Below are positions 5,507-18,069 of a DNA stretch of 24,000 nucleotides, one piece after another. Origin of the DNA: Methylotenera sp. G11 (GTDB taxonomy: Bacteria > Pseudomonadota > Gammaproteobacteria > Burkholderiales > Methylophilaceae); contig NZ_JUHH01000001.1 of assembly GCF_000799735.1 (NCBI RefSeq), positions 2,333,387-2,357,386 on the forward strand. The letters are read 5' to 3'. A program made the position numbers and the translations under genes. Positions within the stretch are counted from its first letter, which is position 1; each line of letters opens with the position of its first letter. The notes under the pieces were generated by a model. The model was not told the origin of the DNA. It saw nothing but the letters and a program-made list of their open reading frames with translations, and did no database searches.

Positions 5507-5794
5507 TTATTTTGCATGGCGCTCACATTTGTCATGCATGGATTTGCGTTCAGCCTCATCTACCTTGCCATCCTTGTTGGCATCCAGCTTAGAGAACATT
5601 TTCTCGGCCTGTTTCTGGTGTTTTGCCATGAACTCCTCTTTGCTGATGACACCATCCTTATTTGCATCAGCATCTTGCCAACTGTGCATTTGCGCCCCGG
5701 CATGGTCGCCGCTCATTTCGTGGTGGTCTGCATAGGCAGTCTGTACCAGACCTAGTAGTAATGAAGATATAGCGAGGATTGGTAGTGTTTTCAT
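5507..5794 (-). CDS. Small secreted EF-hand protein with a His-rich N-terminus
   Basis: ATG at 5792-5794 with AAGGA upstream. Signal peptide MKTLPILAISSLLLGLVQTAYA. Two EF loops, DANKDGVISKEE and DANKDGKVDEAE. The mature N-terminus is DHHEMSGDHAGAQMH. Confidence 0.75.
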   Translation of the reverse strand: MKTLPILAISSLLLGLVQTAYADHHEMSGDHAGAQMHSWQDADANKDGVISKEEFMAKHQKQAEKMFSKLDANKDGKVDEAERKSMHDKCERHAK

Positions 5795-6244: not shown

Positions 6245-6586
6245 TTACTTTTTGCGGGCGACCGTGTCGGCAACCGGGTAGTGATAGTAAAGCGTGTTCA
6301 GGTGCCTGGCGACATTCTCAATATCGTTGTGATCCCATTTAAGGTTGGCAATGTTTTGCCATAGATTTACTTGGGCTACCAGGCTGGGCCAATCGGCAGC
6401 TTTTTTATTGGCAAGCCAGTGCGGCTGTTCATTATGGCAGGATATGCAGTGCAGGGAGTAGAGTAGTTTCCCGCGAGAAATGTCGTTGCCTGCTGATCCG
6501 TCGGCAAGGGCTGGGCTGGTTAGCGATAGCAGGAATAAGGCAAGTGCAGGTGAGCGGATGACTGATTTTACAGGATGAAGATTCAT
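6245..6586 (-). CDS. Small periplasmic c-type cytochrome
   Basis: ATG at 6584-6586. Signal peptide ...LFLLSLTSPALA. There is a single CXXCH haem-binding motif (CISCH). Confidence 0.75.
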   Translation of the reverse strand: MNLHPVKSVIRSPALALFLLSLTSPALADGSAGNDISRGKLLYSLHCISCHNEQPHWLANKKAADWPSLVAQVNLWQNIANLKWDHNDIENVARHLNTLYYHYPVADTVARKK

Positions 6587-6740
6587 GGTCTTTTTCTCTG
6601 AGCAAGCGTGTCAATAAGATTGGTATTGAATATCCGCCTTTAAGCCTGATCGGTCAATATGCGTATGCACTTATTGCGGCCATGAAGGAGTTTTAATGAT
6701 ATTTCTGGGGTGTGGCGGCGTGGGCGTGATTGCCGGGCAA

Positions 6741-6768
6741 AAAAATAGCGCTTCTGCAAGGAAGCGCT
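6741..6768 (-). terminator. Intrinsic terminator closing the P450-ACP-acyltransferase operon
   Basis: The stem is AGCGCTTC (6747-6754) paired with GAAGCGCT (6761-6768), with a 6-nt loop. On the minus strand it is followed by ATTTTTTTG (plus-strand A run 6739-6745). Confidence 0.65.
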
Positions 6769-7056
6769 TATAAAATTGGAGAAAATATATTGCATATCAA
6801 TATATGCGCTCATATTAATCAGTAATAATTAATGAATTATTTCATATGGTTAATTAATTGTTTCATCTGTGGGTGAATACGTAATTTTATGTGTGCGGTT
6901 GATGCCGGCATAGGTTTTTCTGGGAGATTTTGTTGATTGTGCCATGAACCTGCGGCTGCGTGGGACGAAAAAGCACGCAGCCCCAGAGTTGCCGGCTCAG
7001 CCACAAGGATGGCGTTATTACTGGTGAATTTCAGGCTAGACAGGGCTGGTGCCTGC

Positions 7057-7878
7057 TTATTCAAAAATGTACCGTTTGGCGGATAAGTCTTTTTTAAAAG
7101 CTGCAGAAGCGTTAATGAAGCTTATAAAATTATCCACGCAATCCTCAGCCGAAGATGCATCCGAACGTTCGGATATTTCCAGGCAGATGCTGCCATCTGC
7201 CAGCATTTTGTATTTGCAGAAATACAAAGGCAGTTTGAAGCGATGCGCAAATTCAAATAGTGCTGGACTGATATAGCGGCATTTGCCGTTTTCATCCGGA
7301 AAGTCTACATCGCAGCATATAACGCCGGGGTTGTGAATCACCTTGCTTAGCTTTGCCAGGCAGTACGCATCGCTGTTAATGATATTTACAGCAGACTTTA
7401 CGCCTGACCTGACGAATTTTCCGCTGGCGATTTGTTCGGGGACGTATGCAATAGTGGTGACATTGCATCCCAGATCCGAGAGCACCCTGGTCGTCAGCGC
7501 AAACTCATTATGCACGGTAAGCAATATGATCACTTCATTGGTGGAAGTGATGTTGATCAACTGCTTGTGGTCAAAAACCACATCCGGCACATAAGCAATC
7601 CTGAATTTTCTTAACCTTCTGGTGATGCAGCCCAGGAGTAGCTCGGGCTTGCTTAGCTGGTAATGATTTTCAAGCCGTGCCAGTAAAAAGTTGACGACAG
7701 GATGGTTCGACAATGCCTCCCAGTTTTTCCTGAAATAGAACTGGGAGCCCTGGTTCTTATTTAGCCTAAGGCAAATAAACAGGTGACTATCGATAATGAC
7801 TTTTAACAGCAGCGTTGATAGTTTGTGCTGTTTTTTCTTAAACCGGGCCAGCATTTCTGATTCTGGCCATTTCTGCAT
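7057..7878 (-). CDS. Hypothetical protein, distantly LpxL/HtrB-like (acyl-ACP-dependent acyltransferase fold?)
   Basis: By eye it aligns to the two core blocks of lipid A late acyltransferases. ILLTVHNEFALTTRVLSDLGCNVTTIAYVP lines up with the VGVHFMSLELGGRV...ATYRP block. GVICCDVDFPDENGKCRYISPALFEFAHRFKLPLYF lines up with the ...APDQD...G..FAPFF block. The canonical HX4(D/E) acid is not in register (HNEFAL). The gene overlaps the ACP gene by 41 nt, or 17 nt if Met9 is the start. Confidence 0.35.
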   Translation of the reverse strand: MQKWPESEMLARFKKKQHKLSTLLLKVIIDSHLFICLRLNKNQGSQFYFRKNWEALSNHPVVNFLLARLENHYQLSKPELLLGCITRRLRKFRIAYVPDVVFDHKQLINITSTNEVIILLTVHNEFALTTRVLSDLGCNVTTIAYVPEQIASGKFVRSGVKSAVNIINSDAYCLAKLSKVIHNPGVICCDVDFPDENGKCRYISPALFEFAHRFKLPLYFCKYKMLADGSICLEISERSDASSAEDCVDNFISFINASAAFKKDLSAKRYIFE

Positions 7879-8086
7879 CTACCGAGGATACATCTTCACA
7901 GAGCATGAAATTTTCGATAGCAATATCAACGCCCAGGTCATTATTGATTTTCATCAGCAGGTCAAGCACGTCAAGGCTGTCCAGCCTTAAATCGCGGATT
8001 TTAGTGTCTAGCGATATTTGAATGTTGCTCTTGTTGTTTGATATTTCAGCGAATATCTCGCATAGTTTTTTTTGATGTTCAGTCAT
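7838..8086 (-). CDS. Acyl carrier protein
   Basis: It is 82 aa and acidic, with the phosphopantetheine attachment motif LRLDSLDVLDLL (DSL) at the usual position. Its ATG overlaps the P450 stop codon (ATGACTGA). Confidence 0.75.
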   Translation of the reverse strand: MTEHQKKLCEIFAEISNNKSNIQISLDTKIRDLRLDSLDVLDLLMKINNDLGVDIAIENFMLCEDVSSVDAEMARIRNAGPV

Positions 8087-9143
8087 AGATATCCACCTTT
8101 ATACTTTCATAAATATTAAAAACATTGTCCGGGGTGCGATATTCCATCGTATTGATGATTAATTTCTTTTCCAGTTTTTCAAATCTGCTCTTAACAATAT
8201 CCCAGATTTTTCTGCCGATTGGCATGCCCAGGCAGGTGTGCACGCCTGTTGCAAAATAGATTTGTGCATAACTTGGAAATTCAGATTGCTGATAGCCTGC
8301 GGAATCAAGATAAAGCCTGACTCTTTGCCCGGATAATACATTGACCCCGCCCATTGTGTTATCCCTGATCGATATTCTTTCAATGACAGGCACGCCAGTC
8401 GAAGGGATTTCTGAGTCCCACGCGATATTACTGCATGATTTATCCTGGTTCTTTGAAAGTATATAAGCTACAGACTCAGTGATCGTCCCTATTAAAGAAT
8501 CCGCCCCCAGTGCCAATAACGATATACGGAAGTATTTATCATCATCGTTCATGTTTTCGGGAAATGAGTTAAGTATTTCCGCAATAATTTTATTTATTTG
8601 GATCCTTTTATTTAAAGACAGGGTCTCATCGAGAATCTGTGATAGCGAATCAAAGCTGATGTGTGGCGCTAGATTGTTGATTCCCGACAACACCAATAAA
8701 CATGCCGTTAACGAAGGTCTTAAAATATCCTTAACGATATCGGCCGACTGGTGAACGGATAGCAATTGCATTCTGCTATCCAGTACCGTGGTGAAAGTCT
8801 CTAACGCCGCATCTGAATTTTTCAGTATCTCAACAGCGGAGCGCTTGCGGATGGCTTTATGCGCATCCCCGTTCTTGGCTATAGGGAAATAATCAACCAG
8901 CCTTGAAACGTGCTGCAGTTCAAAATTGAATCTTTGCAGAATGGTGTCAATCTTGTAGTCATGCACCGCATAATTCGCATCGTTCAAGATCAATCTAATG
9001 GTATCGGGATTGCTGCACATCCAGCGGTTTAATTCTGGCGACCACCAAAGATTTTTATTATTTTTATATAAAATATTTTTATCTTTATTCTTGTGCAGCA
9101 GATAGTCTGAGCATTTATCTATCATCAGGCGGGCTTTGAACAT
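8079..9143 (-). CDS. Cytochrome P450 (short, 354 aa)
   Basis: The Cys-ligand loop FATGVHTCLGMPIGRK matches FxxGxHxCxG. An I-helix-like LALGADSLIGT carries the acid-alcohol pair. An ERISIRD...G..V..GQRV block precedes the haem loop. The start is an ATG at 9141-9143. A TATAAT on the minus strand (9160-9165) lies 16 nt upstream, and there is no obvious SD. Confidence 0.8.
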   Translation of the reverse strand: MFKARLMIDKCSDYLLHKNKDKNILYKNNKNLWWSPELNRWMCSNPDTIRLILNDANYAVHDYKIDTILQRFNFELQHVSRLVDYFPIAKNGDAHKAIRKRSAVEILKNSDAALETFTTVLDSRMQLLSVHQSADIVKDILRPSLTACLLVLSGINNLAPHISFDSLSQILDETLSLNKRIQINKIIAEILNSFPENMNDDDKYFRISLLALGADSLIGTITESVAYILSKNQDKSCSNIAWDSEIPSTGVPVIERISIRDNTMGGVNVLSGQRVRLYLDSAGYQQSEFPSYAQIYFATGVHTCLGMPIGRKIWDIVKSRFEKLEKKLIINTMEYRTPDNVFNIYESIKVDIYD

Positions 9144-9214
9144 TTTATTTTAATGAAACATTATATTCTGATAGCTGAATAAGCATTATTAATGATTGTT
9201 AATTTCATTAACTC

Positions 9215-9358
9215 AAGAAACAACAGGGCAGGCCACGATTTATTGCTTGGTTTCAATCGAGAGGTTTTTAGTGTGCCATGGCGTATATAAAGAAAACGCC
9301 CCACTCTTTCGAATAAGGCGTCTTTATTGGGAAAGAGTCACCAGCACACTCCCTTGTA
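9215..9358. repeat. att-like direct repeat, copy 1 (degenerate tRNA terminator plus pseudo tRNA 3' end)
   Basis: It aligns by eye with 10209-10358 over its whole length, with only a few substitutions or indels. It shares three elements with 17915-18006: the GGGCAGGCCACGATTTAT box, the hairpin AAAACGCCCCA.TCTTTCGAA..GGCGTCTTTATTGG, and GAAAGAG. Confidence 0.8.
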
Positions 9359-9547
9359 TGCATTATATTTATTGGACAGTAAAATTTTTTAGATTGCTTA
9401 ATCATAAGATGACTAATGATGTGACTGCTGGCTATATCATTACCGATGTGGAGAGGTTGCGTATCCCGATGCAAAAAATTACAGATTACATTACTGCACA
9501 ATTTGGCGTTAAACAGTCAGCTTTGATATTGCCACTTCAACGGCATG

Positions 9548-10208: not shown

Positions 10209-10358
10209 AAGAAATAGCAGGGGGCAGGCCACGATTTATTGCTTGGTTTTAATCGAGAGGTTTTTAGTGTGCCATGGCGTATAAATGAAAACGCCCCAAT
10301 CTTTCGAAAGGGGCGTCTTTATTGGTGGGAAAGAGTCAACCAAACAAACTCTTGCAAG
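10209..10358. repeat. att-like direct repeat, copy 2 (terminator-like hairpin plus pseudo tRNA 3' end)
   Basis: It starts 5 nt after the higA stop. It contains the box GGGGCAGGCCACGATTTAT (10221-10239), the hairpin ACGCCCC...GGGGCGT (10281-10306), and TTATTGGTGG-GAAAGAG. That last string matches the tRNA 3' end TGGTGGTGAAAGAG apart from a 1-nt deletion. Read on the minus strand, the hairpin lies about 145 nt downstream of the hsdR stop and could terminate the hsd operon. Confidence 0.8.
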
Positions 10359-10451
10359 CCATTAGATCAATGGGTTGATGCTGCCTTAAATTTTATAAAT
10401 ACCGTCATGACGTATTCTCAACTTGGATGGCGAAGCAGTGTTTGTCTAACA

Positions 10452-14728: not shown

Positions 14729-15952
14729 CTATGCCGCTACTTCTTCAGGCTTGGGAAAGTTCAACAGCAAATTGCGGTAATACTCGTATTGCTTCTGGCG
14801 CAATGCAATTTCGCGGGGCAAGCCTTCAGTGAGGGAATTGGTCAGGGCGTCGAATTTGTCGAGGATGGCGACGATGCGGATTTTCTCTGAAGGTGAAGGA
14901 TTTGGAATGGAGATGTTGTTTAAGTTCTTTTGGTTTAATTTAGGTTGAGCTGCCCCTGAGATGTATGGCGTTAAGTCCATATTATTTAGATAGAACTCAA
15001 CAAATCTTCGCTCTGCATATGTATTGAATTTAAGCACGTGGGCGTGATTATTTACCCAGCTTTTACCGCTTATACTAAATGCTATCGGTGTGCTTCTAGC
15101 AACTAAATTTGCACCATCTTCTGAAACAAGTAAATAATCACCATCAAAAATATAGTCTTTTACATAATCAACTATTCCAGATGCACCGTAATAAGGAATT
15201 TCACCTGCATCTCTTAAACCGCTGGTTATAGGTTTACGCATCGAATCAAGATTCTCTGCAAGTTCCCCCAAAGTTTTCCACTCGACTTCCCCCTCTTCAA
15301 AACTCAACAACTGGTCGCGGTAATAGTTGTATTGTTTTTTTCGGGCTGTAAGCTCCGCTGTAAGCTCCGCTGTAAGCTCCGCTGTAAGCTCCGTAAAACT
15401 GTCCAAAATGTGGACAATTTCCGCTTGAATTTCAAGCGATTTTTTTTGGTTTTCTGGGCAGGGAATGGGGATTTTTATATCAAGAACAGCAGCCATATTC
15501 GGGTGCTTTATCCCTGAGCCTCTATAAAATGAACTTAATATTTCAAGGTTGTTCAGCAAAAAATAGTAGAGAAATTTGGTGTTCAAGTAATTTGTGTCAT
15601 TAGAAGTTGCAATACGGTTGTCTGATGTTAAAAACTTTCCTTTAAAGTACTGAACTACTGCATCCCCACCCCAAGGAATAGCTATAACCTCACCATCGCT
15701 AACTTTATCTCCAGCCAGTTCCTCTGTTGTGTATTTATTCGATATGTTTGTTGTTAATAGCTTTACATTGCCGTCTATAGTTACCAATGAATTTAGCTCT
15801 TTGGCAAGGAAATAGTGGTATTTGATAACATTGGGTTGCTTATGACTTTCAACTGCATTAAATTTTTTGTCCCACGTCGTGACTTCCCAGAGTGCTCTCC
15901 ATTCCACCTCGACCCCATCCAGCAGCCTGTCCATAAATTTCACGCTGCTCAT
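14729..15952 (-). CDS. hsdS: Type IC restriction-modification specificity subunit
   Basis: There are two variable target-recognition halves. They are separated by a central conserved region (ILDSFTELTAELTAELTAELTARKKQYNYYRDQLLSF), with a matching C-terminal conserved region (ILDKFDALTNSLTEGLPREIALRQKQYEYYRNLLLNF). The ATG lies 2 nt after the hsdM stop. Confidence 0.92.
   Translation of the reverse strand: MSSVKFMDRLLDGVEVEWRALWEVTTWDKKFNAVESHKQPNVIKYHYFLAKELNSLVTIDGNVKLLTTNISNKYTTEELAGDKVSDGEVIAIPWGGDAVVQYFKGKFLTSDNRIATSNDTNYLNTKFLYYFLLNNLEILSSFYRGSGIKHPNMAAVLDIKIPIPCPENQKKSLEIQAEIVHILDSFTELTAELTAELTAELTARKKQYNYYRDQLLSFEEGEVEWKTLGELAENLDSMRKPITSGLRDAGEIPYYGASGIVDYVKDYIFDGDYLLVSEDGANLVARSTPIAFSISGKSWVNNHAHVLKFNTYAERRFVEFYLNNMDLTPYISGAAQPKLNQKNLNNISIPNPSPSEKIRIVAILDKFDALTNSLTEGLPREIALRQKQYEYYRNLLLNFPKPEEVAA
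15345..15392. repeat. Four perfect tandem copies of a 12-bp unit (GCTGTAAGCTCC) inside hsdS, encoding (ELTA)x4
   Basis: Units were read directly at 15345-15356, 15357-15368, 15369-15380 and 15381-15392. The repeat is in frame and lies in the central conserved region of HsdS. Confidence 0.97.
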
Positions 15953-17887: not shown

Positions 17888-17919
17888 AAAATTAATAAGG
17901 GTCAAAATTAATAAGGGTC
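17888..17919. repeat. Perfect 2 x 16-bp tandem direct repeat (AAAATTAATAAGGGTC)
   Basis: Read directly at 17888-17903 and 17904-17919. It sits exactly at the junction between the integrase remnant and att-like copy 3. Confidence 0.9.
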
Positions 17920-18006
17920 AGACCACGATTTATAGCTAAAGCTGCTTTGCAGAAAAGAAAACGCCCCATTCTTTCGAATGGGGCGTCTTTATTGGTGGTG
18001 AAAGAG
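17915..18006. repeat. att-like repeat, copy 3 (the genuine tRNA terminator plus 14 nt of the tRNA 3' end)
   Basis: The box GGGTCAGACCACGATTTAT (17915-17933), the terminator hairpin, and TTATTGGTGGTGAAAGAG are shared with copies 1 and 2. The segment between box and hairpin is shorter than in copies 1 and 2 and unrelated to it. Confidence 0.75.
17951..17986 (-). terminator. Intrinsic terminator of the tRNA gene
   Basis: On the minus strand it reads ACGCCCCATTC-GAAA-GAATGGGGCGT, an 11-bp stem at 17961-17986. It is followed by TTTTCTTTTCT and starts 6 nt after the tRNA CCA end. Confidence 0.85.
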
Positions 18007-18069
18007 GGACTTGAACCCTCGACCCCAGGATTATGAATCCTGTGCTCTAACCAGCTGAGCTACATCACC
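17993..18069 (-). tRNA. tRNA with anticodon CAT (elongator Met or Ile2 type, not the initiator)
   Basis: The 77-nt cloverleaf was folded by hand: GGTGATG-TA-GCTC-AGCTGGTTA-GAGC-A-CAGGA-TTCATAA-TCCTG-GGGTC-GAGGG-TTCAAGT-CCCTC-TTTCACC-A-CCA. The CCA end is encoded. The anticodon stem lacks the three G-C pairs of initiator tRNA. There is one T:T mismatch at 6:67 and a G:T pair at 7:66 in the acceptor stem. Confidence 0.9.

Follow-up and report, generated by a model that had tools for sequence, protein, structure and literature searches.

The closest described counterparts of the locus reported here are enzymes that oxidize or transfer acyl chains. Cytochrome P450 BioI (CYP107H1) of Bacillus subtilis has as its substrate a fatty acyl chain bound to an acyl carrier protein (ACP), and the lipid A secondary acyltransferases LpxL and LpxM (HtrB and MsbB; PF03279) depend on acyl-ACP. 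A P450, an ACP and a putative LpxL-like acyltransferase are encoded side by side in Methylotenera sp. G11, in a three-gene operon on the minus strand of the 24,000-nucleotide (nt) stretch of contig NZ_JUHH01000001.1 that was analyzed (hereafter, the window). On balance, we lean towards reading this trio as a self-contained module, in which an acyl chain would be tailored on ACP and then transferred to an envelope glycoconjugate.

A dedicated ACP that carries an unusual hydroxylated chain is known from Rhizobium, where AcpXL holds a very-long-chain fatty acid, and LpxXL, an LpxL-family enzyme, transfers it to an envelope glycolipid. The AcpXL/LpxXL system differs from the trio in that FabZ, FabF and dehydrogenase genes of its own build the chain, and in that the hydroxyl group is not P450-derived.

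PatA, the mycobacterial phosphatidylinositol-mannoside acyltransferase, has the PF03279-type fold and is similar in size to the protein encoded by the third gene of the trio; unlike that protein, it uses palmitoyl-CoA as the donor and has no ACP or P450 partner. The charge relay of HtrB, MsbB and PatA uses an acidic residue of block 3; in PatA, catalysis involves His126 and the distant block-3 Glu200, while the Asp of the HX4D motif is structural rather than catalytic (PMC4792965). VexE uses its LPLAT domain to transfer an acyl chain from acyl-ACP to a sugar, UDP-GlcNAc, which yields a polysaccharide lipid anchor; a hydroxylated chain is strictly required (PMC9597891). VexE, which we liken to the trio by its description only, differs in having a TPR extension, in using housekeeping beta-hydroxyacyl-ACP made by fatty-acid synthesis, and in lacking a dedicated ACP and a P450.

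Each component of the Methylotenera operon is of a known kind; the combination appears to be new. No description of a P450-ACP-acyltransferase combination was found in the literature and no match to it in Pfam, NCBIfam or PADLOC, which agrees with an earlier reading of this DNA from its letters (hereafter, the sequence-only reading), where the genes could not be matched to any described system. Nor was any literature found on P450s in Methylotenera.

A coupled operon conserved as a unit

The operon comprises the following features, numbered from the first letter of the window:
8079-9125, minus strand: gene 1, P450-like protein of 348 amino acids (aa); with an alternative upstream ATG at 9143, 8079-9143 and 354 aa
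7838-8086, minus strand: gene 2, ACP of 82 aa
7057-7854, minus strand: gene 3, putative acyltransferase of 265 aa; with an alternative ATG at 7878, 7057-7878 and 273 aa
6739-6768, minus strand: intrinsic-terminator-like hairpin and T-run at the end of the operon, from a terminator scan
9144-9215, minus strand: short AT-rich leader read from the sequence, presumed promoter region

The shorter forms of genes 1 and 3 are adopted here, because their homologues begin at Met7 and Met9, respectively, of the longer forms. The open reading frames (ORFs) lie head to tail, and consecutive genes overlap: ATGACTGA is common to the P450 stop and the ACP start (8 nt), and the ACP gene overlaps gene 3 by 17 nt, or by 41 nt if the upstream ATG is used. 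All three belong to a single, translationally coupled operon, and the tight coupling asserted by the sequence-only reading is therefore confirmed. So is the intrinsic terminator that it placed at 6741-6768. On the minus strand, the hairpin runs from 6768 to 6747 (AGCGCTTC...GAAGCGCT) and leads into a T-run; the stem has 8 bp, including 5 GC pairs, and is followed by ATTTTTTT. The hairpin is kept in close relatives of the window locus. It lies 290 nt past the gene 3 stop, which would give the transcript a long 3′ tail; this tail had no match in Rfam, a search that returned only tRNA-Met for the whole window. In the leader, the promoter scan passed no consensus promoter on the minus strand.

The GC content of the trio is 42.1%, compared with 50.5% in the left flank, 51.7% in the right flank and 56% in envZ. 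Thus, the sequence-only reading was right to call the block AT-rich, while its estimate of one third GC was overstated. The value for the trio matches that of the adjacent islands (41.7-42.3%). No megablast match to the trio region was found in E. coli genomes.

Further evidence that the trio is a unit comes from profile searches of related loci (identified below by L numbers) and from a survey of their contexts, which covered about a dozen lineages. The P450, the ACP and gene 3 occur together in all 22 loci with room for the three genes, so that the co-occurrence proposed for checking by the sequence-only reading is indeed found. The trio is kept even where the homologues are only 25-31% identical, as in L008 (hhalign E-value 1e-56) and L036 (2e-34). 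Because the three-gene arrangement recurs in 22 independent loci and down to this level of identity, it is beyond chance; the trio is conserved as a unit. Moreover, the P450 stop and the ACP start overlap by 4-14 nt in every locus for which gene coordinates were read.

The neighborhoods in which the trio is found, about ten in number, are unrelated to one another. The neighbors are a Lon-like protease and an S4 protein, together with APS kinase, UDP-glucose dehydrogenase and an epimerase, in L003/L004; a pyruvyl transferase, an epimerase, APS kinase and a GT4 glycosyltransferase in L002; adenylate cyclase, LexA and HflX in L019-L024; a methyltransferase, a halogenase homologue and two ABC exporters in L005; a kinase of the APH family in L006; and a response regulator and NAD kinase in L008.

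The loci that depart from the standard arrangement are particularly instructive. In L033 (Silicimonas), the P450-ACP pair is intact and the gene 3 homologue faces it from the opposite strand; the link between P450 and ACP is therefore the tightest. In L032, on a 1.37-Mb metagenome contig, the P450 gene has decayed to a 55-aa remnant (6584-6748; profile positions 221-271, E=3e-12) directly upstream of an intact ACP and acyltransferase, which characterizes the P450 as a dispensable tailoring step. In L035 (7430-9843), a gene 3 family member (24% identical) stands without P450 or ACP as the last gene of a GT4/GT4/GT1/Wza/Wzc exopolysaccharide (EPS) operon, where it overlaps by 1 nt a gene for a 523-aa Wzy_C protein, which resembles O-antigen ligases/polymerases; this operon adjoins rpsB-tsf-pyrH-frr-uppS-cdsA-dxr-rseP-bamA. 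Finally, in L036-L039, a GT2 glycosyltransferase gene overlaps the P450 gene by 4 nt, and the resulting GT2-P450-ACP-acyltransferase operon lies downstream of glmU and glmS.

Two further observations concern these loci. A 243-aa protein that matches nothing in Pfam or NCBIfam is encoded on the same strand after the acyltransferase in four of four loci (8895-9626 in L036, and in L037-L039), and it could belong to that operon as its fifth member. Two lineages that are unrelated to each other (L005, 4701-6209; L037, 6676-8301) encode flavin-dependent halogenase homologues (PF04820) a few kb away from the trio; this proximity may be fortuitous, or it may be a hint that some lineages make a small molecule.

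Such gene sets are rare. Grouped at 90% identity, the P450 family comes to 27 clusters in a collection of 5.8 billion proteins, and P450 patterns, which reach the close subfamily only, matched one of 185,579 species genomes, a Methylotenera metagenome-assembled genome.

A minimal P450, its carrier protein and a candidate acyltransferase

Judged by its modeled fold and its heme-ligand motif, the product of gene 1 is a true but minimal P450 that is predicted to bind heme. The AlphaFold2 (AF2) model, which has a predicted local distance difference test score (pLDDT) of 81.5 and a predicted template modeling score (pTM) of 0.82, gave 1333 Foldseek matches in the Protein Data Bank (PDB) at E<=0.001. 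The 50 matches listed are P450s without exception, with complexes of BioI and acyl-ACP in the first ten places (PDB 3ejb, 3ejd and 3eje; top E=3e-12, template modeling (TM) score 0.67). Analogously, the family profile matched 84 PDB sequences at E<=0.01, all 60 of those listed being P450s, again with BioI on top (4e-8). The Pfam model PF00067 scores gene 1 at 11.8 bits (E=0.1), below its gathering cut-off of 22.8, and scores the Silicimonas homologue at 28.1 bits.

The motifs were examined in an alignment of 24 family members with identities down to 27%. Within the Cys-ligand loop (FATGVHTCLG), residues F291, G294, H296, C298 and G300 are invariant in the 24 sequences (FxxGxHxCxG), and the loop is retained in the distant homologues of L008 and L036. 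The acid-alcohol pair of the I-helix, Asp209-Ser210 in LGADS, is aligned by profile to AGHET of BioI; in the close family, Asp209 is invariant and Ser210 almost invariant, and the distant L008 homologue has Asn-Thr at these positions. The ExxR motif of the K-helix is absent: alignments to BioI and CYP119 show either a gap or W-D-S-E-I-P-S in its place, the position of the Arg is occupied in the family by Ser, Ala, Val or Thr, followed by a near-invariant Pro, and in the model a 22-residue loop replaces the J and K helices. It should be noted that ExxR is nearly universal in P450s without being strictly defining, CYP157C1 being a P450 that lacks it.

The sequence-only reading described gene 1 as a short P450 that falls about 50 aa below the typical length. 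Fold and profile agree with this description, and the shortfall is evident from comparison with the 404-residue BioI chain; three deletions, located by profile alignment to the F/G-H region, K-helix and meander, account for it. Such a length has a precedent in a 343-residue P450 chain in the PDB (2rfb). BioI is thus the best match of gene 1 by structure and by sequence profile, and shares with it the I-helix pair and the Cys-ligand loop. The two differ in that identity is only 15-17%, gene 1 is about 50 aa shorter and lacks ExxR, and gene 1 is accompanied by a dedicated ACP gene and an acyltransferase gene rather than a bio operon, while BioI uses housekeeping ACP. In view of the low identity and the lack of bio context, gene 1 is not a BioI orthologue.

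Gene 2 encodes an acyl carrier protein by its match to PF00550 (39.9 bits, cut-off 20.8, E=5e-10), in agreement with the sequence-only reading. The predicted phosphopantetheine attachment site, Ser37, lies within LDSLD, and LDS(L/M)D is kept in all 15 aligned ACPs of the trio. The best NCBIfam matches are fatty-acid ACP models (TIGR00517, E=4e-7). Domain-model annotation of the window proteins revealed no adenylating enzyme, ketosynthase or phosphopantetheinyl transferase (PPTase), as had been stated from the letters. The hydroxylation of amino acids bound to a peptidyl carrier protein, as by NikQ or NovI, was considered and rejected because an adenylation enzyme is lacking and the ACP scores best against fatty-acid models.

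Gene 3 probably encodes an acyltransferase of the LpxL/LpxM/PatA type, the fold and activity being assigned through remote homology only. The family is named "hypothetical protein" wherever the source gives a name. An exhaustive HMMER search (E<=0.001) yielded 141 clusters when sequences were grouped at 50% identity, and almost all fall within 240-300 aa; a word-indexed search found only 11 close relatives. The family alignments contain no conserved stretch of 7-10 residues, and His115 and Asp184 are the sole residues invariant in 118 of 118 sequences.

Profile comparisons place these two residues on the catalytic positions of LpxL and LpxM. When PDB sequences were searched with the family profile, the top match was Acinetobacter baumannii LpxM (5knk, E=0.012; see also 5kn7), with His115 aligned to the catalytic His (VPHFG) and Asp184 to that of "LPD". 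Alignment by hhalign to E. coli LpxL/LpxM/LpxP gave E=1.6e-4 and a probability of 50% over 135 collinear columns, and put His115 on the catalytic block-1 His132 of LpxL and Asp184 on LpxL Asp200 (PDQD); both reversed-sequence controls gave E=0.5-0.7 over 18 columns. PF03279 is matched by 3 of the 118 members (best 2.9e-4) and is the sole Pfam family with more than two members matching.

The acid at His+5 (HX4D/E) is absent: Phe, Ala, Pro, Leu, Tyr or His is found at this position across the family. This absence is explained by the use of a block-3 acid in the LpxL/MsbB/PatA clade, since that acid is invariant in the gene 3 family. The His plus block-3 acid pattern of PatA equals the two invariant residues, and PatA is among the best TM matches of the weak gene 3 model, while its pairwise sequence similarity to gene 3 is undetectable. 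A further likeness to LpxL/LpxM is the N-terminal hydrophobic helix, with a Kyte-Doolittle value of 1.53 compared with 1.56 for E. coli LpxL, i.e., an anchor of similar strength. LpxL/LpxM differ from gene 3 in sequence (identity about 10%), in the acid at His+5, in length (306-323 aa versus 265 aa) and in their lipid A gene context, which was not found for the trio.

The sequence-only reading had called this protein LpxL-like, divergent and lacking HX4(D/E), a description to which the profile evidence, weak but concordant, lends support. It had also named profile searches and structure prediction on the 273-aa form as the check; the profiles returned marginal LpxL/LpxM matches, and the model reached a pLDDT of only 51.7.

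A proposed acyl-transfer pathway and its alternatives

The variant loci suggest how the three proteins may be related in function. The occurrence of the acyltransferase in an EPS operon (L035), the coupling to GT2 (L036-L039), the decayed P450 gene (L032) and the inverted gene 3 (L033) point to an acyltransferase that acts in surface-glycan assembly, to an ACP that serves as its private donor, and to a P450 that edits the donor. The nested variants thereby strengthen the logic put forward by the sequence-only reading, that of oxidation on a dedicated ACP followed by transfer, which in our opinion is still the best reading. The EPS operon and the GT2-coupled trio also parallel VexE, whose acylated sugar becomes the anchor of a polysaccharide. 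The UDP-glucose dehydrogenase, epimerase, GT4, pyruvyl transferase and APS kinase genes on either side of the trio in L002 and L003 likewise speak for a glycan-type acceptor.

The pathway could proceed as follows. A housekeeping PPTase would convert the ACP to its holo form, and the host type II fatty-acid synthase would probably fill it; no conserved loading gene is found nearby. The BioI-like P450 would then oxidize the ACP-bound chain, most likely by hydroxylation, with electrons presumably supplied by a ferredoxin and reductase encoded elsewhere. The membrane-associated acyltransferase would transfer the modified chain to a sugar hydroxyl through a charge relay in which His115 is the base, paired with Asp184. 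The acceptor may be lipid A or the lipopolysaccharide (LPS) core, the lipid anchor of an exopolysaccharide or capsule, or a sugar nucleotide. A private ACP would hold the oxidized chain away from phospholipid synthesis.

Several observations weigh against this pathway. About half of the neighborhoods, including that of the window, are without glycan genes. Near the trio no ferredoxin or reductase partner is encoded, and no loading enzyme (acyl-ACP synthetase or ketosynthase). The P450 is without ExxR, and its Cys-loop region (residues 275-297) is the least confident part of the model, with pLDDT below 50. The acyltransferase assignment is statistically marginal at the E-value and hhalign probability given above, and the window protein itself matches no Pfam (PF03279 included) or NCBIfam model. 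Its poor AF2 model was built from 11 close sequences, and the Foldseek results obtained with it are noisy, the best TM scores being 0.35-0.37 for LpxM and 0.28-0.35 for PatA (E=0.03-0.13).

The lack of glycan genes in half of the contexts also favors a different product, namely a free small lipid, signal or secondary metabolite, with a soluble amino acid, amine or polyol as the acceptor. The neighbors of the L005 trio (methyltransferase, flavin halogenase homologue and two ABC exporters) would fit such a product, as would the halogenase homologue near the L037 trio. We nevertheless consider a small-molecule product unlikely. Both direct couplings to genes outside the trio are to glycan enzymes (Wzy_C in L035, GT2 in L036-L039), the characterized LpxL/LpxM, PatA and VexE enzymes all acylate glycolipid sugars or sugar nucleotides, and the window protein has an LpxL-like N-terminal hydrophobic helix.

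Strict secondary acylation of lipid A, in which the role of the special ACP would be to supply a hydroxylated fatty acid of an unusual kind in the manner of AcpXL/LpxXL, appears still less probable to us. It draws on the fact that the best sequence and profile matches of gene 3 are lipid A secondary acyltransferases, and on the shared logic of a dedicated ACP and an LpxL-family enzyme. It is opposed by the identity of only about 10% to LpxL, by the L035 member, which ends a Wzy-type EPS operon and not a lipid A cluster, and by the gene contexts, as the trio stands beside lpx or waa genes in none of the loci examined. FabZXL, FabF1XL/FabF2XL and AdhA2XL are absent from the window, and no dedicated FabZ, FabF or dehydrogenase genes for chain building were found in the window or the related loci. 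Lacking such genes, the trio is not an AcpXL/LpxXL cluster.

The first place of BioI by fold and sequence profile, together with the gene overlap that ties P450 to ACP, raises the question of whether the P450 acts as BioI does, i.e., cleaves the long chain of an acyl-ACP to give a dicarboxyl-ACP, for instance pimeloyl-ACP, on the way to a cofactor or dicarboxylate. This is very improbable, given that other P450s score nearly as well as BioI at its 15-17% identity, that the window and all related loci examined are free of bio genes, and that the P450 is constantly paired with an acyltransferase, an enzyme for which biotin synthesis has no use.

If tailoring of acyl-ACP and transfer to an envelope glycoconjugate is taken as the starting point, a bolder account can be formulated, which we regard as possible but rather doubtful. 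The trio would represent an unrecognized envelope-acylation pathway, in which a minimal P450 clade without ExxR, undetected by Pfam, is restricted to its own acyl-ACP, and a new LpxL/PatA-like clade attaches the oxidized chain to LPS or to the anchor of an exopolysaccharide. Methylotrophs and marine Proteobacteria would thereby possess a new class of surface glycolipids with hydroxy- or oxo-acyl chains, which might influence recognition by phages or predators.

The trio would add to BioI a second natural case of a P450 acting on an ACP-held fatty acyl chain, here with a dedicated carrier. Its P450 would stand for a minimal architecture (<=348 aa, no ExxR) overlooked by standard domain models, and its acyltransferase for a new branch, of 141 clusters, of LpxL/PatA/VexE enzymes. 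A surface glycolipid product would point to a new envelope modification in environmentally abundant methylotrophs, and the compact three-gene cassette could become a tool for attaching oxidized fatty acids to glycans.

Position beside the tRNA-Met integration site

The trio lies next to mobile DNA, as the sequence-only reading correctly reported when it placed the genes beside the first of several att-like repeats and an island with higBA and a type I restriction-modification (R-M)/PrrC locus. The repeats (families D1, D3, D4 and D5) and the adjoining tRNA gene are as follows:
9216-9361: att-like repeat, copy 1
10212-10359: att-like repeat, copy 2
17906-17998: att-like repeat, copy 3
17993-18069: tRNA-Met, abutted by copy 3

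The att-like direct repeats are about 100-150 nt long and bracket two tandem insertions at tRNA-Met, namely a cassette of 1 kb with higBA and an island of 7.7 kb with the type I R-M and PrrC genes, in which the identities of HigB/HigA and HsdR/S/M were confirmed, as was that of PrrC (E=5e-134). Each repeat holds a terminator-like hairpin, a copy of the 3′ flank of tRNA-Met; the first two copies have a 62-nt stretch in common at 98% identity.

Copy 1 is the outermost repeat. Since the P450 starts some 75-90 nt beyond it, the trio lies outside both islands. Eight metagenome contigs carry the trio at 81-99% identity. Their 3′ side is the core found in the window, in the order cytochrome c, EF-hand protein, FemAB-like protein and ompR/envZ, sometimes interrupted by an ars operon or hflX, and their 5′ side varies from contig to contig. 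A conserved 3′ core combined with a varying 5′ side is the pattern expected of resident genes beside an integration hot spot. In L013, L016, L017 and L025, an ars operon (ArsR, ArsC-type phosphatase, ArsD, ArsA and ACR3/SBF) and hflX lie between the trio and the EF-hand gene; these insertions, present in relatives and not in the window, indicate that the 3′ side accepts insertions as well.

The trio is independent of the defense loci. Its location outside the repeats and its other contexts elsewhere led us to reject membership in the defense island, and the suggestion of the sequence-only reading that the defense or mobile context is a clue to function is not upheld. An anti-phage or envelope-based immunity module belonging to the neighboring island is barely credible. 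The trio does adjoin the higBA and type IC R-M/PrrC loci and equal them in GC content, and a change of phage receptors by surface acylation is conceivable in principle. However, the trio sits beyond all three repeats, its close relatives keep the 3′ core and vary the 5′ flank, none of the three proteins has a match at E<=0.1 in PADLOC-DB 2.0 (PrrC scoring 5e-134 in the same scan), and the about ten other contexts contain housekeeping or glycan genes and no defense genes. More generally, genes that border an integration hot spot at a tRNA may differ in function from the adjacent island.

Downstream of the trio, two small secreted proteins are encoded on the minus strand. The first, of 113 aa (6245-6586), is a c-type cytochrome (CISCH); it was considered as a redox partner of the P450 and rejected, because its signal peptide and CxxCH motif make it periplasmic. 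The second, of 95 aa (5507-5794), has two EF-hands (DANKDG...) and a weak match to lanmodulin (E=3e-4). Both genes are syntenic in all close relatives. In the stretch between the operon terminator and gene 3 (6769-7056), the distal ~170 nt are AT-rich and are kept in L001, L010, L012 and L016 despite gene insertions upstream; they probably belong to the upstream region of the cytochrome c gene. A 75-aa ORF in this region (6837-7064) was rejected as a fourth gene of the operon; its start codon is TTG, its conservation does not extend beyond near-identical loci, and it is probably not a gene.

Within the R-M island, hsdS (14729-15952, minus strand) contains at 15345-15404 a 12-nt tandem repeat, GCTGTAAGCTCC, in about four copies, which encodes TAEL-TAEL-TAEL in the central spacer. 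The copy number of TAEL-type repeats varies and sets the specificity of EcoR124-type (type IC) enzymes. The hsdS repeat is a possible specificity switch.

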